From contig CACIIL010000001.1 of NCBI GenBank assembly GCA_902586695.1, forward strand, positions 22,196-86,195: a DNA stretch of 64,000 nt. Reading direction: 5' to 3'. Origin of the DNA: an uncultured Alphaproteobacteria bacterium. Lineage in GTDB: Bacteria > Pseudomonadota > Alphaproteobacteria > HIMB59 > GCA-002718135. The number at the start of each line of letters is the position of its first letter. The first letter of the stretch is position 1. A program made the position numbers and the translations under genes. The notes beneath the pieces are model-generated. The model did no database searches and had not been told where the DNA came from. It saw only the letters and a list, made by a program, of their open reading frames with translations. Of this stretch, positions 242 to 32,117 are shown in pieces.

Positions 242-893
242 TTTTTTAATATTTTTTTTATTAGTTTGTTCCCCAGTTTTTGGTGAGAGCTTTTATAAAA
301 CATATACTATTAAATCAAGTGGGATAAAGATTGGGACGCTGGATTGGGAGGTCTCCATAAATAACAAACATTATAAAAATGACTTAAAGTTAAAAAGTGA
401 GGGTTTTTTATCGATTTTTTATAACTTTCAGGGCCAATATTCTTCTGTGGGCAATGTGGAAAATAAAAAACTAAAACCAAAAACATACACCCATATATGG
501 AGCACTAAAAAAGTAACAAAAAAAATGAGTTTAGTTTTTCAAAATAACAAACTCAAATCATTAGAACAAACTCCGTTAGAGGAGGAGGGTTTAAGAATTG
601 ACGTGTTTGATATTAACAAAACAAAAGACCCGGTTGCTTCTTTTTTACAAATTGTAATGGGGGATAACAGCTCATTAGTTGTTGATGGTAGAAGGCTTTA
701 CACAATGGTTTCTTTTTTTAATGAAGACACCAAACAAACAACGGTTGAGCTTTCAAACTATTTTAACTTATGGGCAGATCATAAAAGAACTAAGTTTGAA
801 AAAATTGCTTTTGAAAAAAAGGAAGGTAGTTTTTTGCCGTCAGTAATATTAATTTATTTTGATAAAAGGGTTTTTAGACTTGAGGGTGTTTAG
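222..893 (+). CDS. Secreted hypothetical protein, DUF3108-like
   Basis: N-terminal signal-like hydrophobic segment (LIFFLLVCSPVFG). Size and beta-rich pattern resemble alphaproteobacterial DUF3108 proteins. Family assignment is by recollection only. Confidence 0.45.
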   Translation: MQLVLNSFLIFFLLVCSPVFGESFYKTYTIKSSGIKIGTLDWEVSINNKHYKNDLKLKSEGFLSIFYNFQGQYSSVGNVENKKLKPKTYTHIWSTKKVTKKMSLVFQNNKLKSLEQTPLEEEGLRIDVFDINKTKDPVASFLQIVMGDNSSLVVDGRRLYTMVSFFNEDTKQTTVELSNYFNLWADHKRTKFEKIAFEKKEGSFLPSVILIYFDKRVFRLEGV

Positions 894-1435
894 TTTTTTT
901 TCTTTCTAAGATAAACATAAAATGCCCCGTCTCCACCGTGTTCAACAGACGCGGCCTCAAAACCAAGAATGTATCTTGAAAATTTTTTTGAACCTACCCA
1001 ATTTATTAGCGCTGACCTAATTACACCGTGGTAAAGTTTGGGCTTTTCATTTTCGTGGATTTCTTTTGTTTTAAGTAACCCCTTACCCGTTACAAACAAT
1101 AGACATCTCAGGCCTTTATTGTAGCAATTTATTATTGTGTTTGAGAAAAGCTCTTCTGAATCCAGCAATGATTTTCCATGAAAGTCTATTTTTTTGTCAA
1201 TATTGATAGATCTTTTTTTAATACTTTTTTTTATGTTTATGTTTTCTAATTTGTATTCGTGTTTTTTTATAGCGGTTGTTGGTTTTGGTGGGTTTGTCCG
1301 ACTTGTTCTATTTTGATTGGATTTGTTGTTTTTGTTATTTTTGGATTTTGGTTTTCTTTTTTCTACTTTGTTGGTTTTTTTAATTGGGCTGACTCCCTTC
1401 ATTTGTTTTAAAAAATAATCATCATCGTTGCTCAT
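890..1435 (-). CDS. Smr domain-containing protein
   Basis: C-terminal DFHG...LLFVTGKG...HGG Smr-like block after a very basic linker. 4-nt overlaps with both neighbours. Confidence 0.7.
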   Translation of the reverse strand: MSNDDDYFLKQMKGVSPIKKTNKVEKRKPKSKNNKNNKSNQNRTSRTNPPKPTTAIKKHEYKLENINIKKSIKKRSINIDKKIDFHGKSLLDSEELFSNTIINCYNKGLRCLLFVTGKGLLKTKEIHENEKPKLYHGVIRSALINWVGSKKFSRYILGFEAASVEHGGDGAFYVYLRKKKN

Positions 1436-1860
1436 TTTTTTAAAAAATTAATAATTAGATTTTTAACTCTATTAGGTGTCTGTCTATACCAAAGACTTTT
1501 CATCATTTCAAAACAAACCAAATGCTTATTTTTTTGTCTCATATGGTATAGTAGTTTGTTGAATTTTAGAACACTACTCAATCCCATTTGAAAGATCATT
1601 TCAATCAAAAGCTCTGAATCTTTTTTGGTAGATGTTGTTTGGCTTAAGTAAAGATTAAAATCTTTTAAAGCTTTATTAAAATCATTTTCAAAAATTTGCT
1701 CTAATTTTTTTTTGTTTATTTTTTTTTTAATTAAATCTTTTTCTTTTCGTAAAACCAGGTGTCCAAAACCTATTGTAATAAAGCCTAGCTGATCCTTGTA
1801 TGGTTTTAAAGAAAATCCTTCATTTTTTTTTATTCTTTTTTTTAAGAGTTGAAAATTCAA
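1432..1860 (-). CDS. T4-type lysozyme (glycoside hydrolase family 24)
   Basis: NEGFSLKPYKDQLGFITIGFGHL and MIFQMG...SLWYRQTPNRVKNLI align with T4 lysozyme ([29 protein letters not shown]...SRWYNQTPNRAKRVI). Equivalents of Glu11, Asp20 and Thr26 are present. Confidence 0.85.
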   Translation of the reverse strand: MNFQLLKKRIKKNEGFSLKPYKDQLGFITIGFGHLVLRKEKDLIKKKINKKKLEQIFENDFNKALKDFNLYLSQTTSTKKDSELLIEMIFQMGLSSVLKFNKLLYHMRQKNKHLVCFEMMKSLWYRQTPNRVKNLIINFLKK

Positions 1861-1865
1861 TTTTT

Positions 1866-2447
1866 TTATGTTGCAACCAAAGTCCAGGCCGGGGTATTTG
1901 AATCTATAGGTTTTTCAAAAACCCATGTGTCTTTATTTTTAACAACCTCTTCTTCATTGTCTTCTAAAATTTGCTCACTTATAAAGTTCACCGCTATTGT
2001 TATTTTTGAGTTTTCTACTTTTGCATCATCAATACCATCAACAACCAAAGAGTAGAATTGGGAGCTTGGGTTATTAGAGCCAGAATCTATTGCGCTTTCA
2101 AAGGCATTGTAAACATCTTTTGAAACAAGATTTTTTAATGTGTTTTTGTCGCCCTTGTTAAAAGAGGTAATGATAATCTCAAAAGCCTTTTTTGCACCTT
2201 CTAAAAATTCTTTATGGTCAAAAGAAGCAACTGTTTTATATACAACTTCAAGTTTTTGTTCATTGTCTTTAAGCTGAGGAAGGGTTTTTGAGGCTTGTTC
2301 GACCTCTTTTTTCGTAAATTCTTTTTGTGTTATGTTTTTTTGAAAACCGGTTCTTTTTCCAAGAACGCTTCTTAAGCGATAAATAATAAAAACCGCTATA
2401 ACCGCAAATATAATAATATCAAAAAACTGAAGATCTCCATAAACCAT
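1866..2447 (-). CDS. Tim44-like domain membrane protein
   Basis: N-terminal TM helix followed by YRLRSVLGKRTG, and C-terminal ...WVFEK...WTLVAT. This is the typical alphaproteobacterial Tim44-like protein. Confidence 0.75.
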   Translation of the reverse strand: MVYGDLQFFDIIIFAVIAVFIIYRLRSVLGKRTGFQKNITQKEFTKKEVEQASKTLPQLKDNEQKLEVVYKTVASFDHKEFLEGAKKAFEIIITSFNKGDKNTLKNLVSKDVYNAFESAIDSGSNNPSSQFYSLVVDGIDDAKVENSKITIAVNFISEQILEDNEEEVVKNKDTWVFEKPIDSNTPAWTLVAT

Positions 2448-2476
2448 AATAGATTATATAATTACTTTTTATTAAT

Positions 2477-3157
2477 TTAATAGTCATATTTTTTCCAAAC
2501 CGGTTCTTTTATTTCTCCAAGCATTTTTTTATGAAGATTAACATCTTCCTCTACCAGAATATACTTTGTGATTTTCTTTATGTTCTTTTCTTTGGTTTTG
2601 TTTTGTTCATTGTTTTTGTTGGTAATTTTGGACAAATTCATAGAAAATTGCTTTCCTCCCTTTAGCTCAAGGTAAACCTCAGCCAAAAGCCTTGAGTCTA
2701 ATAACGCTCCATGTAAGTCTCTTTCAGATAAATCAATTTTAAACCTTCTACATAAATAATCTAGGTTCGCAACGCGGGTATTAAGAACTTTTCTTGCTAA
2801 AGCGACAGTATCAATAATTGGGTTTGTAATTGTAGGTTTGTTTATTATAGATAGTTCGTTGTTTAAGAACCCTAGGTCGAAATCTGCATTATGAATAATA
2901 AGTGGGTCACCTTTAATAAATCCTAAAAACTCCTCGTAGTGTTCTCCAAATTGTTTTTTGTCTTTTAAGAAGTTGTTTGTTATACCTGTAATCTTTTGGG
3001 CGCCTTCAGAAATTTTTTTATCTACACTACAATAAAATTGTAAAAAATTTTTTGTAGCAACATGATTTATTAACTCAACACAACCAACCTCAATAATTCT
3101 GTCTCCATTTTTGTGGCTTAAGCCGGTTGTTTCAGTATCAATTACAACTTCTCTCAT
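2477..3157 (-). CDS. dnaQ: DNA polymerase III epsilon subunit (3'-5' exonuclease)
   Basis: Exo motifs VIDTETTGL, HNADFDLGFL and HGALLDSRLLAEVY. Confidence 0.9.
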   Translation of the reverse strand: MREVVIDTETTGLSHKNGDRIIEVGCVELINHVATKNFLQFYCSVDKKISEGAQKITGITNNFLKDKKQFGEHYEEFLGFIKGDPLIIHNADFDLGFLNNELSIINKPTITNPIIDTVALARKVLNTRVANLDYLCRRFKIDLSERDLHGALLDSRLLAEVYLELKGGKQFSMNLSKITNKNNEQNKTKEKNIKKITKYILVEEDVNLHKKMLGEIKEPVWKKYDY

Positions 3158-3750
3158 TTTAAAAAGGCCATTAAAGCCTTTTGAGCAGAATAAATAAAGT
3201 CTTTTTTTGTTTTGTTGTTGTAAATAATTATGTTGGACCTGGCCCTTCTTTGCTTGTCTGTTGTTTGGTTTTTAAATATTTTGCCTAAAATTTCTTTTGA
3301 AAATTTCTTTTTTTTTAAAATCCTTTGCTCTCTATTTGTTTTTTTTGATAAAATACAAAGAATTATATCGAATTGTTTATCAAGCCTGTTTTCTAGCAAC
3401 AATGGCACATCCAAAAAAATTGTTTTTTTCTTAATTTGTATATTTTTGCTTATAAAGCATTCTCTTTGTAAGCCCACCTCTTTGTGAATATATTTTTCAA
3501 AACTTTTTTTTAGTTTTTTGTCATTAAATATTCTGTTAGCCACAATCTTTTTGTTGATTTTATTTTTTTTAATAGCCTCGTTTAATCCATTTTTTTTGAT
3601 AAATTCTAAAAAGTTTTTGTTTGGTTTTTTATACATCATAGAAACAACTTTATCTGAATCATGAACTGGATATCCGTTTTTTTCAAGAAAGTTTGAAAGT
3701 GTTGATTTTCCTGAGCCTATTCCACCAGTAATGCCAATTATTTTTGTCAT
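3154..3750 (-). CDS. coaE: Dephospho-CoA kinase
   Basis: IGITGGIGSGKST P-loop at the N-terminus, correct size, dnaQ-coaE-aroE-maf synteny. Confidence 0.9.
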   Translation of the reverse strand: MTKIIGITGGIGSGKSTLSNFLEKNGYPVHDSDKVVSMMYKKPNKNFLEFIKKNGLNEAIKKNKINKKIVANRIFNDKKLKKSFEKYIHKEVGLQRECFISKNIQIKKKTIFLDVPLLLENRLDKQFDIILCILSKKTNREQRILKKKKFSKEILGKIFKNQTTDKQRRARSNIIIYNNKTKKDFIYSAQKALMAFLK

Positions 3751-4532
3751 TTAATTTTTAAATTTAGTTTTTTAATTAACACATCATCAACTATTGGACT
3801 AAAACCAAACCAAAATCGAAAGCTTAAAACGGCTTGCTCAATTAACATTGAAATACCATATATTTTTCTGTTTTTTTTAAAATTTTTTAAAAAATTAGTT
3901 TGTTTGGGTATATAAACTATGTCACTTACAACGGCCTGTTCTCCAACGTTTTTTGTTTGATGTTTATTGAGAGGGTTTGTTGGTGTGGTGTTAATTATTA
4001 GATCTGCTTTTTTCAAATATCTATCAATTGACGAATATTTTTTTGTAAAAGTCTTAAACCCATTAATGTTAATTGTTTTTTTTGAGCGGTTGAAAACATA
4101 AACGTTTTTATAACCTCTAGAAAGGAAGCCATAAAAAATAGCTTGTGCAGCTCCACCGCATCCCAAAATTAAGATTTTTTTTGTTTTGTTAATTTTTAAG
4201 CCTTTAATAGATTTTAAATAACCAGCCCAATCTGTATTTGTGCCTCTGTTTTTTTTATCAATTTTTACACAGTTAACGGCGCCTATTTTTTTGGCGTGTA
4301 TGTTTGTTGTGTTTAGGTGTTTAAGTATATCTTTTTTAAATGGTACAGTTACATTAAACCCGGCAATGTTTTTTTTATTTATTGATTTTAATAAAACTTG
4401 ATCAAAGTTTTTTTTATCAACTTCTAGAAAAGAATACTTTGCACTAATATTGTATTTTTTAAACCAATAATTAAAAATAGCCGGAGAAAGACTTTTAGAT
4501 GTTCTGCTTCCAATAACAAAATAATTTTTCAT
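3747..4532 (-). CDS. aroE: Shikimate dehydrogenase
   Basis: SLSP...N, NVTVPFK, GAVN and GCGGAA Rossmann motifs. Synteny supports the call. Confidence 0.85.
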   Translation of the reverse strand: MKNYFVIGSRTSKSLSPAIFNYWFKKYNISAKYSFLEVDKKNFDQVLLKSINKKNIAGFNVTVPFKKDILKHLNTTNIHAKKIGAVNCVKIDKKNRGTNTDWAGYLKSIKGLKINKTKKILILGCGGAAQAIFYGFLSRGYKNVYVFNRSKKTININGFKTFTKKYSSIDRYLKKADLIINTTPTNPLNKHQTKNVGEQAVVSDIVYIPKQTNFLKNFKKNRKIYGISMLIEQAVLSFRFWFGFSPIVDDVLIKKLNLKIK

Positions 4533-4533
4533 T

Positions 4534-5124
4534 TTAAGTCCTAGACAAATAAATCATAAAAGGGAAAAGGGGGAACCCCAAAACATTAAAAAAGTCTCCT
4601 TTAATTGAGCTTATAATTTGTGGACCAAGCTTTTCTGCCTGAAAACATCCAACGGAGAGTAAAATTTCTTTGCCAACGCGTTTTAAATAATCATCAATTT
4701 GTTTATCAGTTAGTTTTTTCATTGTTACTGTTGACACCTGCTGTTTTGACCAAATTTGTTTTTTCATATAACAAACCGATATCCCTGAAATAATTTTGTG
4801 TTTATTGCCAGAAAGTTTTTTAAGTTTTTTTTTGGCCTCATTCATGTTTTTTGCTTTGTTTATAATTTTGTTTTTAAATATAATAATTGTGTCAGAACCA
4901 ACCACCAATTCTTTTGGTTTTTTTTGACTAACACTTAAGGCTTTTTCTTTTGCTAAAATTTTTGCAAAACTTGTTTGTTTGGTCTTATTTATAATTAATT
5001 TTTTTTTAATATTTTCTTCGTTGCAAAGTGGTTTTGTTTTTACAAAATTTAGACCTGCGTTTTTTAATAATCTATATCTAGATAAGCTATTGCTAGCTAA
5101 TATAAATTTCCTGTTTATAAGCAT
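4534..5124 (-). CDS. maf: Maf-like nucleoside triphosphate pyrophosphatase
   Basis: ILASNSLSRYRLL, VVGSDT and QAEKLG motifs of the Maf family. Confidence 0.85.
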   Translation of the reverse strand: MLINRKFILASNSLSRYRLLKNAGLNFVKTKPLCNEENIKKKLIINKTKQTSFAKILAKEKALSVSQKKPKELVVGSDTIIIFKNKIINKAKNMNEAKKKLKKLSGNKHKIISGISVCYMKKQIWSKQQVSTVTMKKLTDKQIDDYLKRVGKEILLSVGCFQAEKLGPQIISSIKGDFFNVLGFPLFPFMIYLSRT

Positions 5125-5469
5125 GTTAACAACTGTTTAACTTATAAACATAATTAATTATTTTTAAATTTATTATTAAGGTCATTAATTGTTATTTGTT
5201 TTAGTTCACAATAAGTTATTTTAAAAAAAAATTATATTCAGGGTGTTATTAAGTGTTTATTAATATTTATTAACAACTTGTTGTGTTTTTAACATTTTTT
5301 TAATTTCCTGTTTTCTAAAGGTTTTTAGGGTTTTTTAAGGTTTTTATAGGTATTAATATTATTTTATACACTTTTTATAAAATGTGATTAATTAGCTAAA
5401 AAAAAGGAATTAATATAATCAACGTTACAACTACTAATACAATCTAATTAATATAAATTAATATATATT
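5125..5469. other. Candidate chromosomal replication origin (oriC) in the maf|rho divergent spacer
   Basis: The whole maf|rho spacer (5125-5533) is the largest non-coding gap in the window (409 bp), is very AT-rich, and lies between divergently transcribed origin-cluster genes. This feature covers the part upstream of the candidate rho promoter. It contains phased T-tract and TTATTAA repeats, a 10-bp inverted repeat and degenerate DnaA-box-like 9-mers. See findings. Confidence 0.45.
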
Positions 5470-5498
5470 TTGACATTAAGGATCATTTTTTGTAATAA
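5470..5498 (+). promoter_or_regulatory. Candidate sigma70-type promoter of rho
   Basis: TTGACA (5470-5475), 17-nt spacer, TAATAA (5493-5498), about 35 nt upstream of the rho ATG. Confidence 0.4.
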
Positions 5499-5533
5499 AA
5501 ATCTTCTTTTCCTTCCAACTACAATAATAAATT

Positions 5534-6796
5534 ATGAATTTACAAGATTTAAAAAACAAACAACCTGAAGAGCTATTAAAAGAAGCTACTAAACTTGAAA
5601 TAGAGAATCCTTCATCTTTAAGAAAACAAGATCTTATGTTTGCTATATTAAAAAAAATAGCAAATGATGGAGAAATTATAACAGGTTTAGGTGTTATAGA
5701 AATTATGCAAGACGGGTTTGGTTTTTTAAGATCTTCTGAATCTAATTATTTACCAGGACCAGACGATATTTATGTATCTCCTTCACAAATTAAAAAATTT
5801 AGTCTTAGAACGGGTGATATTGTTGAGGGAGAGATAAGAGCACCAAAACACGGGGAAAGATATTTTGCTATAACAAAAATTAATAAAATAAATGATCAAA
5901 AAACCGATGTTGTAAAACATAGAGTAAACTTTGAAGACCTAACACCCCTGTATCCAGAATCTCGTTTTAAATTGGAGCAAGAAAAGCCAATGCCTGATTT
6001 AACAGAGAGAATTATAGATATTATTGCACCATTAGGAAAAGGACAAAGACAACTAATAGTAGCACAGCCTTTTACAGGCAAAACTATTATTATGCAAAAA
6101 ATTGCTAATGCAATTACTGCTAATAGCCCCGAAACAAAATTAATTGTTTTGTTAATAGATGAAAGACCAGAAGAGGTTACTGATATGAAAAGATCAGTTA
6201 AGGGGGAGGTCATAAGCTCAACATTTGATGAACCGGCCCAAAGACATGTTCAGGTTGCTGAAATGGTTATAGAAAAAGCTAAAAGATTAGTAGAATATAA
6301 ACACGATGTTGTTATTTTATTAGACTCTATAACGAGGCTTGGAAGAGCCTATAATACTGTTGTTCCATCAAGTGGTAAGGTTTTAACTGGAGGTGTTGAT
6401 GCTAACGCTCTTCAAAGACCTAAAAGGTTTTTCGGAGCAGCAAGGAATGTTGAAAATGGGGGCTCTTTAACTATAATTTCAACAGCCCTTATAGATACTG
6501 GCAGTAGAATGGACGAGGTAATTTTTGAAGAATTTAAAGGTACCGGAAATAGTGAAATAGTTTTAGACAGAAAACTCAGTCAAAAAAGAACATACCCCGC
6601 TTTTGATATTGGAAAGTCAGGAACAAGAAAAGAAGAATTGCTGTTAGACAAAGACGAGCTTGGAAAAATATTTATTTTAAGAAAAATATTAGCACCAATG
6701 GGAACCACAGAATCAATGGAGTTTTTGTTAGATAAAATGAAAGATACAAAAACAAACAATGATTTTTTCCAAAGCATGGGAACAAAAAGCAGCTAA
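5534..6796 (+). CDS. rho: Transcription termination factor Rho
   Basis: Full-length match to the Rho architecture: N-terminal RNA-binding domain (GFGFLR), Walker A (PFTGKT), and RFFGAARN...GSLTII...[18 protein letters not shown]. Confidence 0.97.
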
Positions 6797-6876
6797 TAAA
6801 GCTATTTAATTTAATAAAAACAAATCTTTTATCTGAAATTATAGACTTGAAGGGCTAATAGGTTTATTGGCCAAAA

Positions 6877-8175
6877 ATGTCAAAATACAACGATACAATA
6901 TACGCTCTTTCGAGTCCACCAGGCAAATCAGCAATAGCTATAATAAGGGTCTCAGGGAAGGGTGTTTTAAAAATTATAAAAAAACTTTTTCCGGTTTCAA
7001 AAAAAATAACACCAAATAAAACAAATTTATTTTTACTAAAACATAAAAAAAAACCAATAGATCAGGTTGTTTTAATCTATTTTAAACAACCCAAATCATA
7101 CACTGGGGAGAACATGATAGAAATTAATTGTCATGGAGGCCCAGTAATAATTAATAAAATTTCATTAATATTAGAGGGTCTCGGGGTGAGACTGGCAGAG
7201 CCTGGGGAATTTACTAAAAGAGCATTGTTAAATAATAAAATAGATTTGGTTAAGACAGAAAGTATTGCTGATTTAATAAACTCTGAAACTGAAAAACAAA
7301 TGAGTCTGGCTATAAAAAACCTAACTGGTGGACTCTCATCTTTTACAAAAAAAATTAATGAAGAGCTTAGTAATATTTTGGCAAACACAGAAGCAATAAT
7401 AGACTTTTCTGACGAAGACCTGCCAAAAGACATACTTAAGTCTATAAAAGAACAAAACAAGAACATAATAAAACAAATAAAAAAAGAGCTTGTTAACTCT
7501 AAAATTTCTAGACCAATTAGGGAGGGCTTTCGTGTTTCGGTTATTGGCAAACCAAACACCGGAAAATCTTCCTTTGTTAATTATGTTTCAAAAAAAAATG
7601 TATCTATCGTTACAAGTATTCCTGGAACAACAACTGATGCAATTACTTCATCGTTAGAAATTGATGGATATAAATTTACTTTTATTGATACTGCTGGAAT
7701 TAGAAGACATAGAAACAAAATTGAAGAACTTGGTATTAAAAAAACTAACGAAATTATTACAAGCTCTGATTTAAATTTAGTTTTTTTAGAAAAAAATGAA
7801 ACAAACAAATACAAGAATATTAAAAACAAGCTATTTGTTAGGTCTAAGGCAGACAAAAAACAAAAGAAAACGAAAGAAAAAAATATTTATAATATATCTT
7901 CATTTTCAGGCGTTGGGGTTAAGTTATTATTAAAAAAAATCAAAGATATTTTGTTAAAAAACAATAAAAATGAACCCATCCTTTCACGTGAAAGGCATAT
8001 CTTTATAATGAAAGATGTATTAAAAACCCTTGATTCAATTGATTTTTCAGAAAATTTGGATATTTTAGCTTATAAATTTAGAGTTGCCCTTAATCAATCA
8101 CTAGAAATTAATCAAAAATTTGATATTGAAGATATATTAGGTATAATATTTAATGATTTTTGTATAGGAAAATGA
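6877..8175 (+). CDS. mnmE: tRNA modification GTPase MnmE
   Basis: DTIYALSS N-terminus, G-domain GKPNTGKSS / DTAGIR, and C-terminal FCIGK. Confidence 0.95.
7980..7995. promoter_or_regulatory. parS-like centromere site (perfect 16-bp palindrome CCTTTCACGTGAAAGG)
   Basis: The 12-bp core TTTCACGTGAAA is identical to the core of the canonical parS TGTTTCACGTGAAACA. It lies inside the 3' part of mnmE, upstream of parAB. Confidence 0.6.
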
Positions 8176-8189
8176 TTTCACGTGAAAAT
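8174..8189. promoter_or_regulatory. parS-like centromere site (GATTTCACGTGAAAAT)
   Basis: Same 12-bp core TTTCACGTGAAA at the mnmE stop / mnmG start junction, about 190 bp from the first site. Confidence 0.55.
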
Positions 8190-10055
8190 ATGAAAAAAAA
8201 ATATGCAGTTGTGGTAATTGGGGGCGGACATGCTGGTGTTGAGGCTGCTACAGCAGCAGCTAGAATGGGAGTAAGTGTAGCATTAGTAACCCATAAAATT
8301 GATAAAATAGGCGAGATGTCTTGTAACCCAGCAATTGGGGGCCTTGGAAAAGGTCACCTGGTAAGGGAGGTTGACTCACTTGATGGAGTAATGGGAAGGG
8401 CCATAGATAAGGGTGGAATTCAGTTCAGAATGCTTAATGAAAGCAGAGGCGCAGCTGTTAGGGGCCCCAGAGCTCAAGCTGATAGAAAGCTTTATAAGAA
8501 CGCTATTTTTGAAATTGTTAAAAACCAAAAAGGATTGGATTTAATTGAGGGATCGGTTGAGGATCTGGGCATTTTAAACAATCAAATTAATGCCGTAATT
8601 TTAGAGGACGGGAGAAAAATTAACTGTTTGTCAGTGGTTTTAACATCCGGTACTTTTTTAAGGGGGGTTATAAGAATGGGTACTAAAAGCATAGAGGCTG
8701 GTAGGGTCGGAGACAAACCTTCTATTTCTCTTGCAAAAAAAATTGAAAAACTAAAGTTTTCAATAGGTAGATTAAAAACAGGGACCCCACCACGATTACT
8801 TAAAAAATCTATAAATTTCAATAACTTAACAGAACAACTACCTGACAAAGTGCCCACACCCTTCTCTTTTATCAACAACTCTATCCACACCCAGCAAATT
8901 TCATGTTTCATTACCCACACTAATAGCAACACCCACAAAATTATTTCTGACAACATTGGTTTGTCACCAATGTATTCTGGTGTAATTAAATCTATGGGCG
9001 CCAGATATTGTCCATCAATTGAGGACAAAATTACAAAATTTCCCAATAAAAAAAACCACCAAATTTTTCTAGAACCAGAGGGCTTGGATAGCGACTTAAT
9101 TTATCCGAATGGAATATCCTCTTCTTTGCCTGAAAATATTCAAGAGAAATTTGTTAGGTCAATCAAAGGCTTGGAAAAAGCGATCATTACTCAACCAGCA
9201 TATGCAATAGAATACGACTATATTGATCCAAGAGAGTTAACCCACACACTTGAAACGAAAAAAATAAAAAATCTTTTTTTGGCTGGCCAAATAAATGGGA
9301 CAACAGGTTATGAAGAGGCCGCCGCACAGGGTATTATAGCTGGTATTAATGCTGGTTTAAAAAAAACTACAAAAAAAGAGTTTGTTGTTGATAGATCCCA
9401 AGGTTATATTGGTGTTTTAATCGATGATTTAGTTACTAAAGGAACAAAAGAACCATATAGAATGTTCACATCTAGATCAGAATACAGGCTTTTATTAAGA
9501 TCAGACAACGCCGACCAAAGAATTACACCACTAGGAATTGAAATTGGTTGTGTTTCTTTGCTCAGACAAAATATTTTTAATAAAAAAATTAATATGATAA
9601 ACAGGGCGTTTAAACTGGTTAAGAGCCTAAAAGCTTCTCCAAATCAATTACAAAAAAAAGACATAAAAATTAAGTTAGATGGAAAAAAAAGATCTGCTTT
9701 TGATCTTCTTTCATATAAAAACATTAATTTCAAAAAATTAGAAAAAATATGGCCAGAACTTACAGCTTTGAAAACAGATGCTAAAGAGCAGATTGAGATC
9801 GAATCTGTTTATTCCTCTTACCTTGATAGACAAAGGGCCGATATAGAGGATTTTAAAAAAGAAGAAGGAATGAGGATACCTAAAATCATAGACTTCAAAG
9901 ATGTTGGAAGTTTGTCGAATGAAATAGTAGAAAAGCTGACTAAAATTAAACCACCAACCCTTGGAGCAGCTTCTAGAATTTCTGGAGTTACGCCCGCTGC
10001 AATAATTGCAATTATGAGGTTTATCAAAAAACAAAAAAATAATAAAGCGGCATAA
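8190..10055 (+). CDS. mnmG: tRNA uridine 5-carboxymethylaminomethyl modification enzyme MnmG (GidA)
   Basis: [17 protein letters not shown] motif and end-to-end GidA-like sequence. The tracked ORF begins at 8160. ATG 8190 ([13 protein letters not shown]) is the more plausible start. Confidence 0.95.
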
Positions 10056-10056
10056 G

Positions 10057-10674
10057 TTGAACAAAGAAGAAATAATTAACTATTTTAATTTAACCAAAAA
10101 TCAAATTGAAAGCATTGAGATGTTTTTATCTAATATCGTTGAACACAACAAACACACCAACCTAATAGGCAGGTCAACAATTAAGAATCTTTGGAATAGG
10201 CATGTTCTTGATTGCCTGCAGTTATCAAAATATATTAACTCTAAAAAAACCAAAATACTCGATCTTGGGACTGGCCCAGGTCTTCCAGGTGTTTTGTTAT
10301 CAATTGTTGGTTACAAAAACATATTAATGATAGACTCTTCTAGAAAAAAAACCGAATTTGTAAAACTAAACATCAATCAATTGTTTTTATCTGCAAAAAT
10401 AATTAATAAAAGAATCGAAACTGTTGAGGCTAAAAACCATGACATTATTGTTTCAAGAGCGCTCGCCCCACTTAACAAATTATTAACTTATGCACTTATT
10501 CATTCCAATAAAAAAACAACATCGCTTTTTTTAAAAGGAAGAAGTGTTAGTAATGAATTACAGATAGCAAAAAAAAATTTTTTTTTTGATTATGAGGTTT
10601 TTGAAAGTATAAGTGTGGGGGATGGTTGTATTTTGAAAATAAGAAACATTAAAGTTAAAAAAAATAATGACTAA
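10057..10674 (+). CDS. rsmG: 16S rRNA (guanine527-N7)-methyltransferase RsmG (GidB)
   Basis: LDLGTGPGLPG SAM motif, RHVLDC, gidA-gidB-parA-parB synteny. TTG start. Confidence 0.9.
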   Translation: MNKEEIINYFNLTKNQIESIEMFLSNIVEHNKHTNLIGRSTIKNLWNRHVLDCLQLSKYINSKKTKILDLGTGPGLPGVLLSIVGYKNILMIDSSRKKTEFVKLNINQLFLSAKIINKRIETVEAKNHDIIVSRALAPLNKLLTYALIHSNKKTTSLFLKGRSVSNELQIAKKNFFFDYEVFESISVGDGCILKIRNIKVKKNND

Positions 10675-11437
10675 AATAATATCTATTGCAAATCAAAAAG
10701 GAGGTGTTGGAAAAACAACAACATCAATAAACTTAGCAACCTCTTTATCGGCAATTAATAACAAGGTTCTTCTTGTTGATGCTGATCCACAAGGCAACGC
10801 AAGTACTGGAGTCGGCATTCCTTATGAAAATAGAAGCCCAAGCCTATATGATCTAATTGTAAATCGTGAATTTGATGCAAAATCAATTATAAAAACCATT
10901 GTTCCTGATTTAGATATTATTACAGCAAACACAAATCTAGCAGCATCAGAAATTGAATTAGCTAATATTGAAAATAGAGAGTTTGTAATTCTTGAAATTT
11001 TATCTAAAATCAAAAACTATGATTACATTATAATTGATTGTCCGCCAGCACTTGGGCTATTAACAATAAATTCTTTAGTGGCATCAAATTCAGTAATTGT
11101 CCCTCTTCAATCAGAGTTTTTTGCCCTAGAGGGCGTTTCTTCTTTGGTTAGCTCTATTCAGTTAATAAAAGAAAACTTTAACAACAGTCTTAGGGTTGAG
11201 GGAATAGTATTAACAATGGTTGATAAAAGAAACTCATTAAGCGCTTTAGTTGAAAAAGATGTTAGGGATCATTTTGGTGAAATTGTCTACAAAACAACAA
11301 TTCCAAGAAATGTTAAAATATCCGAGGCTCCTAGCCACGGTAAGCCCGCAATATTATATGATGTTAATTGTTCTGGATCTATGGCATATATAGGGCTTGC
11401 CAAGGAGATTATAAACAGACAGGGCTTAATAAAATGA
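10667..11437 (+). CDS. parA: Chromosome partitioning ATPase ParA
   Basis: Deviant Walker A NQKGGVGKTTT, DCPP and ParA-type C-terminus. Confidence 0.95.
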   Translation: MTKIISIANQKGGVGKTTTSINLATSLSAINNKVLLVDADPQGNASTGVGIPYENRSPSLYDLIVNREFDAKSIIKTIVPDLDIITANTNLAASEIELANIENREFVILEILSKIKNYDYIIIDCPPALGLLTINSLVASNSVIVPLQSEFFALEGVSSLVSSIQLIKENFNNSLRVEGIVLTMVDKRNSLSALVEKDVRDHFGEIVYKTTIPRNVKISEAPSHGKPAILYDVNCSGSMAYIGLAKEIINRQGLIK

Positions 11438-12267
11438 ACAAAGAAAACAAAAAACTAGGCATGGGTCTCGGCGCATTATTAAGTCCAAACAAAGACAGCA
11501 GAAACAACATAAACAAGATAGAAATTTCAAAAATTTCACCAAACAAGAAACAACCAAGAAAAAAATTTGATGATAAAGAAATAAAAGAGCTTTCAGGCTC
11601 AATTAAAAACCAAGGTCTAATTCAGCCCTTGGTGGTTAGAAAAATATTAAATGATTCATATGAAATTGTTGCAGGGGAGAGAAGGTGGAGAGCCTGTCAG
11701 ATTGCAGGACTTCATGAAGTAGAATGTGTAATTATGGACATTTCTGAAGAAAAAGTTTTTGAGTTAGCATTAATAGAAAATATTCAAAGAGAAAACCTAA
11801 ATGTTGTTGAAGAGGCTAGTGCTTATAAAAACTTAATACAGATTTATAAATTAAAAAACGAAGAGCTTGCCAAAAAACTTGGTAAAAGCGCTAGCCACAT
11901 TTCAAATCTAATTAGAATTTTGGACTTAGATGAAGAAATTCACCAAATGATCATAGATGGTAAGATTAGCATGGGACATGCCCGCGCGCTAATTGGTGTA
12001 CCTAATGCGGTTGAAAAGGCCAAAGAAATTATAGAAAAAAAACTTAGTGTTAGGGATGTTGAAAAATCAACGGCTGGTTTCAAACAAAAAAGAAAAAAAC
12101 ACTCAGGAAAAGATCCCAACATAGCGGATTTAGAAAAAGAACTTTCTGATAAAATTGGTTTAAAGACTGAGATAGAATTTAATGAAAACGGCTCCAGCGG
12201 ATCATTAAAATTATATTATTCAGACTTAAATCAACTTGATGAAATAATGAAAAGACTCAAGAAGTAA
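11434..12267 (+). CDS. parB: Chromosome partitioning protein ParB
   Basis: GLGALL, QPRK.F, GLIQPLVVR and GERRWRA motifs. Start is set at ATG 11434 (ATGA overlap with the parA stop) rather than the longer tracked ORF at 11368. Confidence 0.95.
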   Translation: MNKENKKLGMGLGALLSPNKDSRNNINKIEISKISPNKKQPRKKFDDKEIKELSGSIKNQGLIQPLVVRKILNDSYEIVAGERRWRACQIAGLHEVECVIMDISEEKVFELALIENIQRENLNVVEEASAYKNLIQIYKLKNEELAKKLGKSASHISNLIRILDLDEEIHQMIIDGKISMGHARALIGVPNAVEKAKEIIEKKLSVRDVEKSTAGFKQKRKKHSGKDPNIADLEKELSDKIGLKTEIEFNENGSSGSLKLYYSDLNQLDEIMKRLKK

Positions 12268-25406: not shown

Positions 25407-25481
25407 GCGGGCGTAGCTCAGGGGTAGAGCGCAACCTTGCCAAGGTTGAAGTCGAGGGTTCGAATCCCTTCGCCCGCTCCA
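25407..25481 (+). tRNA. tRNA-Gly (anticodon GCC), CCA encoded
   Basis: Cloverleaf read by eye: acceptor GCGGGCG/CGCCCGC, D arm GCTC/GAGC, anticodon arm CAACC-TTGCCAA-GGTTG, T arm GAGGG-TTCGAAT-CCCTT, then TCCA. Confidence 0.95.
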
Positions 25482-27429: not shown

Positions 27430-28359
27430 TTAACAACAAAAATTATCTTCAAACACCTTCATTATTTCGAAAGTATAATCTTGTTTTAGGTGTCTATTAT
27501 CTTCTAAAAAAGGATCTACAAAATATTCTTTAGTAATTTCATAAGACGGAAAATAGTACAAATCTTCTTTATTATTATATTTTGAAATTACATTATCTAA
27601 AGCAACCCTTAAAATAGATTTAGATATTGAGTTTGCTGTTATGCAAGATTGAGGCCTAAAAGTTGCCATCAAAGGAATTGGGGAAAGAGTATATATAATT
27701 GATGCATTAGGTTTATATTTTTTTATTACAGAGTAAATACTATCTAAATTATTAGTATTTTCTTCAACTGTTGAGACTCTAAAACCATGTTTATTTTCAT
27801 CAAATTGACTGGCGGGAATTGCTTTCCAAAAAACCTGGTTATTTAATTTATTATACCATACTTCTGCAAGGCCAACAGTTATGATAAAAATATCAATTTT
27901 GTTTAATAAATTTAAAGTTTGCTCTCTTATTTCAAAGTCATTTCTTTCTTCTTTTTGAGATGTATAATACCATGTATTTTTTTCAATATCTTTATTTTCA
28001 AAAGCCCAAAGTAATTGTTCTAAAACAGTAAAGGTGTTTGCCATACCCTCTCCATAACGAATGATATGAGTATCGGTTGACATTTTTTTATTGAAAATAG
28101 AATAATTTTTATTTGCAAGATAAGAAGATACTTCTGCAGCAAAACAACTACCAAATGCAAGAATATTTTGTTTTTTTGTAATAAATGGTTTTTTTGGTTT
28201 AAATCCTTCTAATATATATTTATCAAAAAAATTCTTATCTTTAAAATGTTTTTTAGAAGGAATAAAATTACAATTTTTTCCTCTAAACCAATGCCCTCCA
28301 AATTTTTGAGAGTCACTTTTTGTTTTATATATTAATGGGTCTAACCTATACCTTTTCAT
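27430..28359 (-). CDS. GSCFA-domain protein
   Basis: Contains the eponymous motif (AFGSCFAAEV). Size is consistent with the GSCFA family. Function unknown. Confidence 0.75.
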   Translation of the reverse strand: MKRYRLDPLIYKTKSDSQKFGGHWFRGKNCNFIPSKKHFKDKNFFDKYILEGFKPKKPFITKKQNILAFGSCFAAEVSSYLANKNYSIFNKKMSTDTHIIRYGEGMANTFTVLEQLLWAFENKDIEKNTWYYTSQKEERNDFEIREQTLNLLNKIDIFIITVGLAEVWYNKLNNQVFWKAIPASQFDENKHGFRVSTVEENTNNLDSIYSVIKKYKPNASIIYTLSPIPLMATFRPQSCITANSISKSILRVALDNVISKYNNKEDLYYFPSYEITKEYFVDPFLEDNRHLKQDYTFEIMKVFEDNFCC

Positions 28360-28461
28360 TTTTATATCTATTTAATATACACAATTAAAATTAATATAAA
28401 TAAAAAAATAGTTATTATTGAGTTTTGGTTTGTTTAGTTTTTAAAAAATGAATTTATTATT

Positions 28462-29115
28462 TTAGTTTTTTATAAGGTCGCCAAGCAGACTATAATCATT
28501 AGTATATATTTTTTTTACTTTTGTTATTTGATATGCATTTAACTCTAAAACAAATTCCTTGCCCCCTGTTTGGATTTTAGGAAATTTTCTATCTTGACCA
28601 AAAAAATTATTTATTTTTTGTTCAAATGTTTTAATATTTGAAGTAATGCCAATTATATTAAAATAACTCAAGTCATTACCCAGCCAATAATTTTGAGGAA
28701 GAAAATGCTTGTTTTCAAAAAGGTTGTTTTCAAGCTTTTCAATAACCATATCAACTGTATGATTATAAAATTCCTTATCTTTATGAAATAAAACTCTATT
28801 TTTGTATGCTGATAAAAATCTTTTTAAAGGATCTCTGACAATACATGCTCTATAGTCTACTTGTAATTTTGTAAATCTATTCTTGCTTTTAAACCAATTT
28901 GTTAAATTTGTTTTTCCTTCAAAACTATCTTGTAATTTTTTAGTTTGTTTAAATCTAGGTATATTATCCTCTATAAAAAAAAATTTATCTAATAAATCTA
29001 AATGACTAGCAAAAAAAAGTTTAGCAGAGGAATTTGCATTTTTTTTTACAGGATAAAATACTAATTTTTTATTTGTTTTTTTATTAAAAAAGACCGGGTA
29101 TACTGGGTTTTTCAT
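28462..29115 (-). CDS. Sulfotransferase family 2-like protein
   Basis: Candidate PAPS-binding blocks: YPVKKNANSS (5'-PSB-like) and IVRDPLKRFLSAYKNRV (3'-PB-like, RDP..R..SAY). Confidence 0.6.
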   Translation of the reverse strand: MKNPVYPVFFNKKTNKKLVFYPVKKNANSSAKLFFASHLDLLDKFFFIEDNIPRFKQTKKLQDSFEGKTNLTNWFKSKNRFTKLQVDYRACIVRDPLKRFLSAYKNRVLFHKDKEFYNHTVDMVIEKLENNLFENKHFLPQNYWLGNDLSYFNIIGITSNIKTFEQKINNFFGQDRKFPKIQTGGKEFVLELNAYQITKVKKIYTNDYSLLGDLIKN

Positions 29116-29185
29116 TTTTTTTATTCTATACTAATTGACTGCTTTAATCTATCTAACTTGAATTTTTATAAATAATTTCAAAGTG

Positions 29186-30241
29186 TTATTTATGTAAATT
29201 TAAATTCTTTGCTGACCAGTAAAACCTATCATTTCTTACAAGGGGATGAAAGCTATTTCTACCAACAGCAGTATTGAAATTATTAAAATTAAAAGAAGTT
29301 AGTATTTTAATAAAATTAATTCTTTTATTAATTTGGTTTGAAAATTCTTTATCTAAGAAAATTGTTTTAAAATCATTATTCGTTAGAAAATAGTTTTCAT
29401 AAATACACTGTGTTTGCCATGAAAAACCTTCTATAAATAAGTTGTTGTTATTTAAATAATACTTTGGTTCACTTATTTTTTCATTAAGCTTTATAAGATA
29501 AATATTGTTATCATATTGAAAAATATTTCTTTCTTTACTAAAATGAACTAAGATTTTTTTTTCGATTTGTTTATTAACTATATTTAAAAGAACAACAAAT
29601 TCAGTTATAAGCCCTTTACAAATATTTTCAAAATTATACTCTAATTCTGCCTCTCCCTTTACAATTCTTTTTCTTATTTTTTCTATTTCATTAAAATTTG
29701 TAAAATTTTTTTCTTCTATTTCAGCACCAAGTAATTTTAAGCAGTTGATTGTATGTATTATAGAGTGTCCCGTCAGCAATAATGCTTTATGACTTCTTTT
29801 TTTCTCAATAATTAGATTTATTAATGTTGTTATTCTATTGTGAATTTGTTCAAATGAATTTAATATGTTTTGGTATGGATTTAAATTTTTAGATTCAAAA
29901 CTTATTTTACCTGTTAATATTTTTAATTCTGAAACTGGATTGTATGTCATGTATGGCAGCATTTTTATTGATGACAAAGGATATATATGGGGTAAATGAT
30001 GGAAGTATATCTCTTTGTTGGGTAAATCTTTTATTGCTTCTTTAAATAAATATAAAAATTGAGAAGACAAAACAAAATTGTCTTTGAAAACAAATATTAA
30101 ATCTATGTCTGAAACACCTGGACTTTTTATATGACCATTGTGAATAATGTTTTCAGGCACAAGGTTGCTCGGTAGTTTTTTTGAAAATTCTAAAACATAA
30201 TCAATAGTTCTATTATAATCTTCTATATTTAAAGCTTTCAT
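29186..30241 (-). CDS. Divergent nucleotidyltransferase-fold protein with helical C-terminal region
   Basis: NGHIKSPGVSDIDLIFVF resembles the Pol-beta NTase G[SG]-x(9-13)-D-x-D motif, but with GH in place of GS. 1-nt TAATG overlap with the upstream NTase gene. Confidence 0.4.
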   Translation of the reverse strand: MKALNIEDYNRTIDYVLEFSKKLPSNLVPENIIHNGHIKSPGVSDIDLIFVFKDNFVLSSQFLYLFKEAIKDLPNKEIYFHHLPHIYPLSSIKMLPYMTYNPVSELKILTGKISFESKNLNPYQNILNSFEQIHNRITTLINLIIEKKRSHKALLLTGHSIIHTINCLKLLGAEIEEKNFTNFNEIEKIRKRIVKGEAELEYNFENICKGLITEFVVLLNIVNKQIEKKILVHFSKERNIFQYDNNIYLIKLNEKISEPKYYLNNNNLFIEGFSWQTQCIYENYFLTNNDFKTIFLDKEFSNQINKRINFIKILTSFNFNNFNTAVGRNSFHPLVRNDRFYWSAKNLNLHK

Positions 30242-31305
30242 TAAATTAAGTATTTTTCTGAAATTTCATTTAAAATTTCATTTTTTTGAATATTTACACT
30301 CATATTTATTGAGTCAACCATGATATTTTTTATAAATTCCTCACTCACACCAATATTTGACATTTGAAGCTCTGCCCAATCACTTCTAATTAATGATGCA
30401 CTATTAAATAAATCAATTTCTTTTTTAGATTTATATTTATGTATCTTATTTTCAAAAATATTTTTTTTATCAAGATAGGTTCCAAATATAATTTCAAACT
30501 CTAAAATAATTAACATAAAGTAACTGCTTATTAATTGCTTCAAAAAAAATAAATTATTTATTTTGTCTTGGCTTTGTAAATCAATCATAATTCTTAATAT
30601 GTTGAAAAAACTTTCAATCTTTAAATCTAAATCTTCCCTTATGCCTTTTATTGTTATTTCATGATTTTTAGAAGACGAGCCTTTTTCAAGTGCGGAAATA
30701 GGCATAAAGCTTTCAGGGTAACAATCCAAGTCAGACTCAAGGTTAATGAAAACTTTATGATGAGAAACAGGGTCGAAAAATGCTATTTTTTTATTTAATG
30801 CCTCTATTTGAAAATATGCTTCTCTTAGTTCTTTTTCACTATTAATTAATTTATTTTTAATAAATATACTTACATCAACATCACTAAACCTTGTACTTTG
30901 CCCATCAGATTGACTTCCATGTAATATTATTGAAAAATAATCAAAATGGTTTTCTTCACACATTGACAATATCTCACTCCCAATATTTGTTATGGAGTTA
31001 CTTTCTAGGCCTTTTAATGATTTATCTAATTTAGTTTTTTTAAATAAACTTGAGAAATCAAAGTTTAGGTATTCAATTACGTTTGAATTATCACTTCCTA
31101 AAAAAGAGTAAAAAGAATTAACAGGATCTATGTTTATTTTTAAATTATTGTTTAGAAGCAATGACAAAGATTTTTTTCTCATCCTTTGGGCTATGCTGTA
31201 TTTTCTACAATTGTTTATAAACCTCGGATCAAATAAAAGCTTAATATTTTCATCTATTTTAATAGATTTTGAATTTAATGTTGAATATATTTCGCTAAAA
31301 TTCAT
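30241..31305 (-). CDS. Nucleotidyltransferase (Pol-beta superfamily) domain protein
   Basis: Canonical ILHGSQSDGQSTRFSDVDVSIFI (GS...DxD) at residues about 128-148, flanked by an approximately 125-aa N-terminal region and a helical C-terminal region with no recognised motifs. Confidence 0.6.
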   Translation of the reverse strand: MNFSEIYSTLNSKSIKIDENIKLLFDPRFINNCRKYSIAQRMRKKSLSLLLNNNLKINIDPVNSFYSFLGSDNSNVIEYLNFDFSSLFKKTKLDKSLKGLESNSITNIGSEILSMCEENHFDYFSIILHGSQSDGQSTRFSDVDVSIFIKNKLINSEKELREAYFQIEALNKKIAFFDPVSHHKVFINLESDLDCYPESFMPISALEKGSSSKNHEITIKGIREDLDLKIESFFNILRIMIDLQSQDKINNLFFLKQLISSYFMLIILEFEIIFGTYLDKKNIFENKIHKYKSKKEIDLFNSASLIRSDWAELQMSNIGVSEEFIKNIMVDSINMSVNIQKNEILNEISEKYLI

Positions 31306-31306
31306 C

Positions 31307-32116
31307 TTATTTTAGGATTTCTTTTATTTCATGAACAACAGTTTCTATTGAAATAAGCCGCATACACTCTTTGCAGTGCTGACAAATATTTTTGCTTCCA
31401 CAAGGTGAGTTAGGCAAATCAACATAAATATTTTTATGGAAATCATAACCTGTAATTTCAGGACTTATATGCCCACCAAAAATAACAACTGCCTTGCACG
31501 AAGTGGCCGCTGCTGCATGATGCATTCCTCCTTCAGTTCCAATAAAGAGATCACATTTTTCGAGAATTGCAGCACTATTTCTAAAATTAATACCATGAAT
31601 GTTAATACATCCTTCAATCGGCTTAAGGTCACCGTATGTTATATGTAAAAATTCATATTTATCTATAAGTTTTGAAACAACCTCTTTCCATTTTTCTATT
31701 CCCCAGTCTCTATTTTGATAACCTCTTCTTATTTTTACATAGGGCTCTATAAAAATTAGTTTTTTGTTGCCAATTTTATTTCTTATTTTTTGTATTACAG
31801 ATTTAGAAAAATCCTTTTCACTTTTTGAAAAAAAAATCTCACCCTTTTTTGCTTTATAATTTTTATTCCATGTATAAAAATCTTTATGTCTACTTTTGTC
31901 GTAAATTCTATATGGTCTATTACCTTCATAATTTTTAATCCAAACAATTTTTTTATATTTTGAAATTTCATTTATATCAATAATGTAAGGATTATTATTA
32001 AAGACCTCATTCCAATAAGATAGCGTCCCATCACCAACTACAAACTTTGCATCACGAATATTTTTTCTAATTTCTTTAATTTCACCTGTTGCCATTAAGG
32101 CGTCGCCTAAACCCAT
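31307..32116 (-). CDS. Glycosyltransferase family 9 (heptosyltransferase-like), short form
   Basis: GLGDALMATG at the very N-terminus and GTEGGMHHAAAATSCKAVVIFGG near the C-terminus (GT9 donor-binding block). 269 aa is shorter than typical GT9 enzymes. Confidence 0.7.
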   Translation of the reverse strand: MGLGDALMATGEIKEIRKNIRDAKFVVGDGTLSYWNEVFNNNPYIIDINEISKYKKIVWIKNYEGNRPYRIYDKSRHKDFYTWNKNYKAKKGEIFFSKSEKDFSKSVIQKIRNKIGNKKLIFIEPYVKIRRGYQNRDWGIEKWKEVVSKLIDKYEFLHITYGDLKPIEGCINIHGINFRNSAAILEKCDLFIGTEGGMHHAAAATSCKAVVIFGGHISPEITGYDFHKNIYVDLPNSPCGSKNICQHCKECMRLISIETVVHEIKEILK

Positions 32117-32117
32117 C

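Follow-up and report, generated by a model that had tools for sequence, protein, structure and literature searches.

The stretch of DNA analysed in our study (64,000 nucleotides of the genome of an uncultured alphaproteobacterium, referred to below as the window) contains, between the genes maf and rho, a non-coding spacer of 409 bp. We propose, with a probability of about 0.78, that this spacer is the chromosomal replication origin (oriC), joined directly to the rho promoter. The initial annotation had taken it as a likely oriC. We adopt this reading because of the gene order around the spacer, its size, its conservation in relatives, the family of DnaA-box-like sites within it, its homology to spacers linked to hemE in other alphaproteobacteria, and the lack of any sign of an RNA or a small protein in it. 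The spacer and its two adjacent genes are the following:

4534-5124, minus strand: maf, matched by the NCBIfam Maf models (E 1e-45); it opens the leftward maf-aroE-coaE-dnaQ block, which is syntenic in loci L001-L160.
5125-5533, no strand assigned: the whole maf|rho spacer, with the proposed oriC (about 5124-5469) and the rho promoter and leader (5470-5533).
5534-6796, plus strand: rho, matched by the NCBIfam Rho model (E 2.5e-205); it opens the rightward rho-mnmE-mnmG-rsmG-parA-parB block.

To the left of the spacer, the minus strand carries maf, aroE, coaE, dnaQ, a Tim44-like gene and two more genes; to the right, the plus strand carries rho, mnmE, mnmG, rsmG, parA and parB, with leuS farther on. 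The flanks given in the initial annotation are therefore as described, except for holA and lptE, for which no Pfam match was found among the window proteins. The convergent arrangement parB|holA-lptE-leuS corresponds to the Caulobacter gene order. The spacer had also been described as the longest and the AT-richest of the window. It is the largest of the 38 positive gaps (the runners-up measure 203, 171 and 167 bp, and most gaps are below 100 bp, with eight of the 38 reaching that size), but it is not the AT-richest: its GC content is 17.4%, in a window with 27% overall, and lower values occur at 32706-32908 (12.8%) and 28360-28461 (10.8%).

Gene order was compared in 80 alphaproteobacterial loci around rho, obtained from a Rho search of genome contigs. 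In nearly all of the 80 loci listed, including those of Caulobacterales, tim44-dnaQ-coaE-aroE-maf lies on one strand and is followed, after an interval of 3-4 kb, by rho-mnmE-mnmG-rsmG-parA-parB, which agrees with the gene order around Caulobacter Cori given in the initial annotation; of this order, the window lacks hemE, hemH and the DUF299 gene. The origin has been mapped between hemE and DUF299 in Caulobacter and predicted there in Rickettsia (PMC1914354, PMC6393856), and the published alphaproteobacterial origins have lengths of 383-425 bp (PMC1914354, Table 1). The 409 bp of our spacer fall within the length of about 380-425 bp of a Cori-type origin; the spacer does not lie between hemE and DUF299 (COG1806), while the next-outer synteny (maf and its block on one side, rho and its block on the other) is preserved. 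In Pelagibacteraceae, the interval is made up of DUF299 (PF03618, minus strand), a spacer of 262-279 bp and hemE-hemH-hemJ (plus strand), followed by rho. Relative to this arrangement, about 3.6 kb of genes have been lost at the maf|rho locus, and tblastn identified no remnant of DUF299, hemE, hemH or hemJ in the window or in the flanks of its relatives. Among the 80 loci listed, comparable shortcuts exist only in L027 (maf|rho, 234 bp) and L075 (coaE|rho); because these place rho beside the dnaQ-side block, hemE and DUF299 have been lost from the origin locus more than once. Both are low-GC lineages, and both have a box-rich spacer between the dnaQ-side block and rho (L075 9523-10000, L027 9767-10000). 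The window's organism belongs to a separate, deep, low-GC marine alphaproteobacterial lineage: the closest Rho among the species-representative matches listed has 75% identity, and Rho identity is 89-92% inside the window's clade, 68-74% to Pelagibacteraceae and all other alphaproteobacteria (68-71% for Pelagibacteraceae taken alone), and 81-97% among the Pelagibacteraceae themselves.

Our interpretation is also supported by the orthologous spacers, a comparison that the initial annotation had proposed. A metagenome scan with Maf identified 80 loci with Maf identities from 99% to 47% and identical gene order in all of them; both gene starts were present in 49, which together with the window make up the 50 sequences used below. 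The length of the spacer in the 49 relatives (Maf 47-99% identical) is 395-423 bp, and 84 of the 404 alignment columns (21%) reach a conservation of at least 90%. In maf, taken from the same genomes, not one of the 44 four-fold degenerate sites does so, and the mean major-allele frequency at these sites is 0.51. Near-invariant short blocks are separated by freely varying DNA, and the spacer is, on this alignment, under purifying selection. Eight DnaA-box-like sites were recognized among the conserved columns:

5124-5132, minus strand: box H, TTGTTAACA, which overlaps the start codon of maf; many relatives have TTATTAAC-ATG.
5142-5158 (9-mer 5142-5150), plus strand: box A, TTATAAACA with TAATTA after it; each of 15 positions is conserved in 37-50 of 50.
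5202-5210, plus strand: box B, TAGTTCACA; clade consensus TWAYTAACA, with the AACA core in 48-49 of 50.
5244-5252, minus strand: box G, TTAATAACA (plus strand TGTTATTAA); TGTT core nearly invariant.
5267-5275, plus strand: box C, an exact TTATTAACA with a conserved nGTTnTT after it; 43-50 of 50 per position.
5364-5372, plus strand: box D, TTATACACT; clade consensus TTATNCA (T 46, T 50, A 37, T 45, n, C 33, A 38 of 50).
5383-5391, minus strand: box E, TTAATCACA (plus strand TGTGATTAA); relatives have TGTTAATAA, the reverse complement of TTATTAACA.
5415-5423, plus strand: box F, TAATCAACG; clade consensus TRATTMAC.

Box A is the best-conserved block apart from the rho promoter, and boxes D and E form a convergent pair. 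The three degenerate 9-mers singled out in the initial annotation correspond to boxes B, D and E, all of them on conserved columns. In the 50 spacers, the eight boxes are held at near-invariant distances:

maf ATG to box A: 17 bp in 49 of 50.
Box A to box B: 60-61 bp in 48 of 50.
Box B to box G: 41 +/- 1 bp.
Box G to box C: 23-24 bp.
Box C to box D: 96-98 bp in 44 of 50.
Box D to box E: 19-21 bp.
Box E to box F: 31 bp in 48 of 50.
Box F to the triplet tract (described below): 12-13 bp.
Triplet tract to the rho -35 hexamer: 40-60 bp, the sole variable interval.

Constant distances between sites whose intervening DNA is free to change are a classical mark of replication origins, as in the enterobacterial oriC consensus.

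Besides promoter words, the commonest informative 9-mers of the clade are TTATTAACA, present in 36 of the 50 spacers, and TTATAAACA, present in 32. Exact copies of TTATTAACA occur 1.08 times per spacer, compared with 0.09 in dinucleotide-preserving shuffles (12-fold), and copies with at most 1 mismatch occur 4.48 times, compared with 1.62 in shuffles; the canonical TTATCCACA within 1 mismatch is not enriched over shuffles in the clade spacers. The densest 300-bp cluster of the TTATTAACA family in the 64 kb is found at 4991-5360, with 8 sites, and other long AT-rich spacers have 0-1. Within a single alignment column of the clade, the box varies among TTATTAACA, TTATCAACA, TTATTCACA, TAATCCACT and ATATTCACA (the column of box C includes TTATCAACA, TAATCCACT and ATATTCACA), and the equivalent positions upstream of hemE in Pelagibacteraceae and Nitrospirillum are occupied by TTATTCACA or TTATCCACA. 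In addition, TTATCAACA is the DUF299-proximal box of Rhizobiales spacers. Because TTATTAACA alternates with TTATCAACA, TTATTCACA, TAATCCACT and TTATCCACA at aligned positions, we infer that it is an AT-shifted DnaA box in which the C at position 6 has been replaced by A. Searches of the literature turned up nothing specific on a SAR11-type origin or on TTATTAACA as a DnaA box. Box H has a counterpart, in matching place and orientation, beside the start of DUF299 in Pelagibacteraceae and Rhizobiales (TGTTAATAA, TTATCAACA). In many relatives (loci L120-L160), the maf start codon lies inside a perfect box, TTATTAAC-ATG on the maf strand (window 5122-5132). An occupied box H would sit directly on the translation or transcription start of the maf-aroE-coaE-dnaQ operon.

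The part of the spacer nearest to rho is made up of three consecutive elements:

5405-5423, plus strand: core module, GGAATTAAT followed by box F; AATTAA in 39-50 of 50.
5426-5443, plus strand: CAAC/TAC tract, TAC AAC TAC TAA TAC AAT, six A-centred triplets; candidate site for single-strand DnaA binding and the start of unwinding.
5444-5469, no strand assigned: candidate DNA unwinding element with one G/C base (the C at 5444) and AATTAATATA in 2.4 copies (5446-5469).

The core module aligns with GGGAATTACC-GTTATCCACA in Nitrospirillum (L074) and with AATTAA..TTATTCACA in Pelagibacteraceae, in both cases just upstream of hemE. The central A of the triplets is kept in 37-50 of the 50 sequences across six successive triplets, and a matching CAAC/TAC tract follows the box in L003, L061, L039, L063, L067, L069 and Pelagibacteraceae. 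The DUF299|hemE spacers of this last family carry TTATCCACA, TTATTCACA and TTATTAACA in a like arrangement and end, just before hemE, with AATTAA, TTATTCACA and TAC AAC TAC. The stretch 5444-5469 is variable in length and sequence among relatives and corresponds to the AT-rich tract that comes after the CAAC tract in other hemE spacers; its AT-richness is non-discriminating inside a spacer of 17% GC.

These correspondences were examined with a profile built from the window-clade columns 5125-5462, which was searched against the 80 loci (2.9 Mb counting both strands) and gave 9 matches with E-values from 0.013 to 5. Eight of the nine are in spacers between DUF299 and hemE or, in L075, in the one between coaE and rho, and one of the matches is in L061, from a genome of 50% GC. 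Decoys (one reversed and three column-shuffled profiles) gave 0-3 matches each, and only one of the seven was in such a spacer. With a sub-profile of 5403-5445, the Nitrospirillum sequence (67% GC) GGGAATTACC-GTTATCCACA-GGAC-CAACAACCACC is aligned to the window's GGAATTAATA-TAATCAACG-T-TACAACTACTAA; core alignments to L061, L063, L067, L069 and L074 bear out the homology of the hemE-proximal core. Many high-GC spacers show, in order, AATCCCC(G), a TATCCACA-type box, a G/C-rich spacer, a CAAC-rich tract, an AT-rich tract and hemE. Because these spacers have a matching order of elements, 5405-5469 reads as the hemE-proximal core of the alphaproteobacterial origin, retained though hemE itself is gone.

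A separate observation concerns CAAC-A-GAnTC units beside the last DnaA box, which are found in the high-GC DUF299|hemE spacers of L015 (about 7200-7300), L006, L007, L008, L020 and L043. The L015 spacer has two copies of an 11-bp direct repeat, CCAACAGACTC; the window's clade has retained CAAC but not the GANTC methylation sites.

Three further features belong to the spacer:

5470-5533, plus strand: rho promoter and leader, with TTGACA (5470-5475), 17 nt, TAATAA (5493-5498) and a short C/T-rich leader.
5231-5259, minus strand: candidate maf-operon promoter, TAAACA-17-TATAAT, with 10 of 12 consensus matches.
5310-5351, plus strand: phased T-tract array, GTTTTTAAAG, 4.2 copies with period 10 (Tandem Repeats Finder), in the fixed-length interval between boxes C and D.

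The rho promoter, as proposed in the initial annotation, is present and nearly invariant, with the same -35 to -10 distance in 50 of 50 sequences, and its position is that of the promoter which Pelagibacteraceae have between hemJ and rho, in a spacer of 62 bp; upstream of it, about 340 bp are left for the origin. The rho leader (5499-5533) is conserved and pyrimidine/C-rich (TTCTTTTC ... CAACCCCAA), without a Shine-Dalgarno-like purine run, and may serve as a signal in translation or in the autoregulation of Rho. On the other strand, 5259-5231 is a plausible maf promoter, and a -10-like (G/T)ATAAT recurs in relatives at that column. A plus-strand promoter-like pair, TTAACA-17-CATAAT (5126-5154), is directed into the spacer, with its hexamers on the conserved columns of boxes H and A; given this pair, a transcript may enter the origin from the maf side.

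The motif coordinates of the initial annotation were exact in all cases, and Tandem Repeats Finder identified its two period-10 arrays (at 5246-5273 and 5310-5351) and a third one at 5446-5469. The phasing of T-tracts at 9-11 bp between boxes C and D across the clade has a z of about 4 against mononucleotide shuffles, which is only indicative, the sequences being related, and the phased tracts would be consistent with intrinsic curvature. The 10-bp inverted repeat at the maf start is perfect in the window, as had been noticed, but among the relatives only in the 99% twin L081; it decays in the others, with its right arm (box A) conserved. It was rejected as a conserved hairpin or operator, being strain-specific. 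Regarding known regulatory sites, CtrA-type TTAA-N7-TTAA occurs three times in the window spacer (5126, 5249 and 5289), none of them position-conserved, and any such site is found in 19 of the 50 spacers. Neither GANTC (CcrM) nor the IHF consensus WATCAANNNNTTR occurs in the window spacer; the former is present in 9 and the latter in 7 of the 50. Because the CtrA, GANTC and IHF sites are unconserved, a regulatory layer of the Caulobacter type is not a feature of this spacer.

It is important to consider the observations that weigh against an origin at this place. As the initial annotation had stated, only degenerate DnaA boxes are present: no site of the window spacer is within 1 mismatch of TTATCCACA and 5 are within 2, and for TTATCCACA with at most 2 mismatches the highest density in the window is not in the spacer. 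Box F, in the core module, is 3 mismatches from TTATCCACA. A strict test for a box with at most 2 mismatches and CAAC within 10 nt gave 0 in the window and 5 of 50 in the clade; the hemE spacers gave 9 of 37, 13-fold over background. In form, the CAAC/TAC tract is a run of NAN trinucleotides beside a DnaA box. The published search pattern for the basal unwinding system consists of a box with at most 2 mismatches, then 0-16 nt, then at least three NAN trinucleotides on the complementary strand (PMC8287927), and in E. coli and B. subtilis the trios are on the complement of the strand that reads 5'-TTATCCACA-3' and lie 5' of the boxes (PMC10721633). In our spacer, the A-centred triplets are on the strand where the box reads TTATCCACA, opposite to the E. 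coli and B. subtilis module (PMC8287927, PMC10721633). What the window shows on the canonical strand, beyond a 6-nt spacer, is GAT-GAT-TAT, but the consensus of the clade alternates, so a box followed by trios on that strand is not found. The CAAC/TAC tract is likely the opening site; because its triplet polarity differs and box F is 3 mismatches off, we do not claim its membership in the DnaA-trio arrays. To our knowledge, the unwinding element has not been mapped in alphaproteobacteria.

The remaining observations of this kind concern the surroundings. Neither dnaA nor hemE is in the window, the clade's hemE not having been sought elsewhere in the genome. The initial annotation had the genes diverging from the spacer, co-directional with replication; the divergent orientation is limited to 890-12267 (up to 12.3 kb), and beyond parB the pattern is lost; of the coding DNA to the right of the spacer, the minus strand has two thirds (36.7 kb) and the plus strand 18.9 kb. 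GC and AT skew, including strand-split third-codon positions, have no replication component in the 58 kb to the right. A parS site (TGTTTCACGTGAAACA) was not found within 3 mismatches across the window (1-64000), though parA and parB are at 10667-12267, so parS in this lineage must be divergent or lie outside the window. The skew data come from a 64-kb window with 5 kb to the left of the spacer, a scale at which skew is too small to be read. We regard the skew, the excess of minus-strand coding and the absences of parS and dnaA as weak or neutral points.

The serious rival is that the origin departed with hemE. In that case, the spacer would be no more than a complex regulatory region with divergent promoters, serving the maf operon and rho, with the boxes acting as operators, possibly with DnaA as a regulator, and the origin would be elsewhere, for example with hemE. 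It would account for the absence of hemE, hemH, hemJ and DUF299 from the window and from all relatives' flanks, for the strongly conserved rho promoter and the plausible maf promoter inside the spacer, for the overlap of box H with the maf start codon, and for the lack of support from gene orientation or skew. There is also precedent in Wolbachia and Ehrlichia, where the predicted origin followed hemE and stayed with it (PMC1914354). However, the promoters take up about 70 bp at the right end and some 30 bp in the middle, which leaves the fixed 300-bp scaffold of eight boxes unexplained, and the hemE-proximal core, made up of a weak box, a DnaA box, a CAAC tract and an AT tract, has been retained and conserved despite the loss of hemE. 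The remnant of a dead origin should decay in very compact genomes, yet 21% of the columns are at least 90% conserved; moreover, L027 and L075 lost hemE adjacency, yet their box-rich spacers beside rho remain. We therefore consider this explanation improbable, although it is the strongest of those that compete with an origin.

Less probable still is a conserved non-coding RNA, a long regulatory leader (an attenuator of rho or maf) or a small protein. The rho gene of E. coli has a long autoregulatory leader. Also in favour of a transcript are the pair TTAACA-17-CATAAT (5126-5154), which points into the spacer with both hexamers conserved, and the small RNA transcribed from the origin region of Caulobacter (PMC6393856, PMC8959179). 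Nevertheless, no Rfam match was obtained in the spacer at the gathering threshold or at E up to 1, RNAalifold predicted 0 consensus pairs on either strand for the 50 sequences, and the folding energy (-53.0) is not below that of shuffles (-56.9 +/- 4.5). The 10-bp hairpin at the maf start is unconserved, only about 30 nt of leader remain downstream of the conserved rho promoter, and for a small protein there is no open reading frame of at least 20 amino acids inside 5141-5469, with indels that are not multiples of three. A functionless, decaying remnant of the deleted DUF299 and hemE genes might be suspected from the loss of about 3.6 kb of genes exactly at the spacer in comparison with Pelagibacteraceae, but we give it almost no credence: tblastn found no trace of DUF299, hemE, hemH or hemJ, and length and motifs are kept down to 47% Maf identity, while the other spacers are mostly below 100 bp. 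Conservation has effectively refuted this last possibility already.

Returning to the spacer as oriC, the following mechanism can be proposed from sequence comparison. DnaA would bind about eight weak, AT-shifted boxes, whose consensus TTATTAACA would be a relaxed TTATCCACA. The boxes, held at fixed distances over about 300 bp (5124-5423), include three oppositely oriented pairs (H/A, G/C and D/E), and the phased T-tracts between C and D probably curve the DNA, which would bring the left and right groups together. The strands would probably open, and the helicase be loaded, in the right-most module, which consists of GGAATTAAT, box F, the CAAC/TAC tract and the near-pure A/T stretch (5405-5469). 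DUF299 to the left and hemE-hemH-hemJ to the right, the neighbours in the ancestor, would have been lost, with the origin now abutting maf and the rho promoter, and transcription from the rho promoter may replace that of hemE beside the opening site. A more far-reaching version, which we offer only tentatively and consider rather doubtful, is that DnaA recognition drifted with base composition to a box that is A/T at each of its first seven positions (TTATTAACA), with the origin rebuilt as a rigid scaffold of eight boxes with three opposed pairs, without the CtrA/CcrM/IHF layer and wired to the maf start codon, which lies inside a box, and to the rho promoter, which takes the place of the hemE promoter beside the opening site; the TAC/AAC triplets on the 'wrong' strand might then mean a different unwinding geometry.

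An oriC is expected in every chromosome, this is the textbook locus, and such predictions are routine; current understanding is not overturned. The points of modest interest are the loss of both flanking genes with the origin in place, the AT-shifted boxes, the rigid eight-box scaffold and a widely shared tract with ill-fitting polarity. The proposed oriC would locate the origin to the base for an abundant, uncultured, low-GC marine alphaproteobacterial clade, serving coverage-based growth estimates and the orientation of assemblies, and it would indicate that an alphaproteobacterial origin can stay put despite the loss of its textbook flanks hemE and DUF299. The natural series from TTATCCACA to TTATCAACA to TTATTAACA at orthologous sites is material on the tolerance of DnaA boxes to AT drift, and the CAAC/TAC tract beside the last box, found in many alphaproteobacterial origins, is a concrete candidate for an unwinding element.

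Elsewhere in the window, 27430-32705 is a run of minus-strand genes with a GC content of 0.22-0.27, encoding a sulfotransferase, a GSCFA-family protein, a 2OG-Fe(II) oxygenase and three open reading frames without a Pfam match, which may together form a variable island for surface modification. The spacer that ranks second in length (203 bp, 32706-32908), the AT-richest of the long ones, follows closely on purH, lies upstream of the gene for the 2OG-Fe(II) oxygenase (32118-32705) and holds a single TTATTAACA-like site. The sole RNA gene detected in the window is a tRNA-Gly(GCC) at 25407-25481 on the plus strand.

In comparison with known systems, the spacer resembles the origins of Caulobacter crescentus (Cori) and Rickettsia prowazekii in having dnaQ-coaE-aroE-maf on one side and rho-mnmE(trmE)-mnmG(gidA)-rsmG(gidB)-parAB on the other, a length of about 400 bp, several weak DnaA sites instead of strong consensus boxes, and an AT-rich tract beside a promoter that fires away from the origin. 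It differs from them in lacking hemE and DUF299 (COG1806) as immediate flanks, in the absence of conserved CtrA sites in the clade and of GANTC and the IHF consensus in the window, and in its AT-shifted boxes of type TTATTAACA, not of the TGATCCACA or TCCCCA type. The basal unwinding system of B. subtilis, E. coli and H. pylori shares with it a DnaA-box-like site, a short spacer, six A-centred trinucleotides and an AT-rich tract, whereas in the window the box is 3 mismatches off and the triplets are TAC instead of TAG and lie on the box strand instead of its complement, so that membership is not claimed. Compared with the enterobacterial oriC, the sequence and number of the boxes differ and GATC clusters are missing (the window spacer has a single GATC), but in both, short conserved sites stand at invariant distances from one another while the DNA that separates them varies. 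The DUF299|hemE spacer of Pelagibacteraceae (SAR11) is shorter, at 262-279 bp as against about 340 bp before the rho promoter in the window's clade, and has kept DUF299 and hemE-hemH-hemJ, but it shares with our spacer the low GC content, the interchangeable TTATTAACA, TTATTCACA and TTATCCACA, the end module of AATTAA, box and TAC AAC TAC, and the profile matches.

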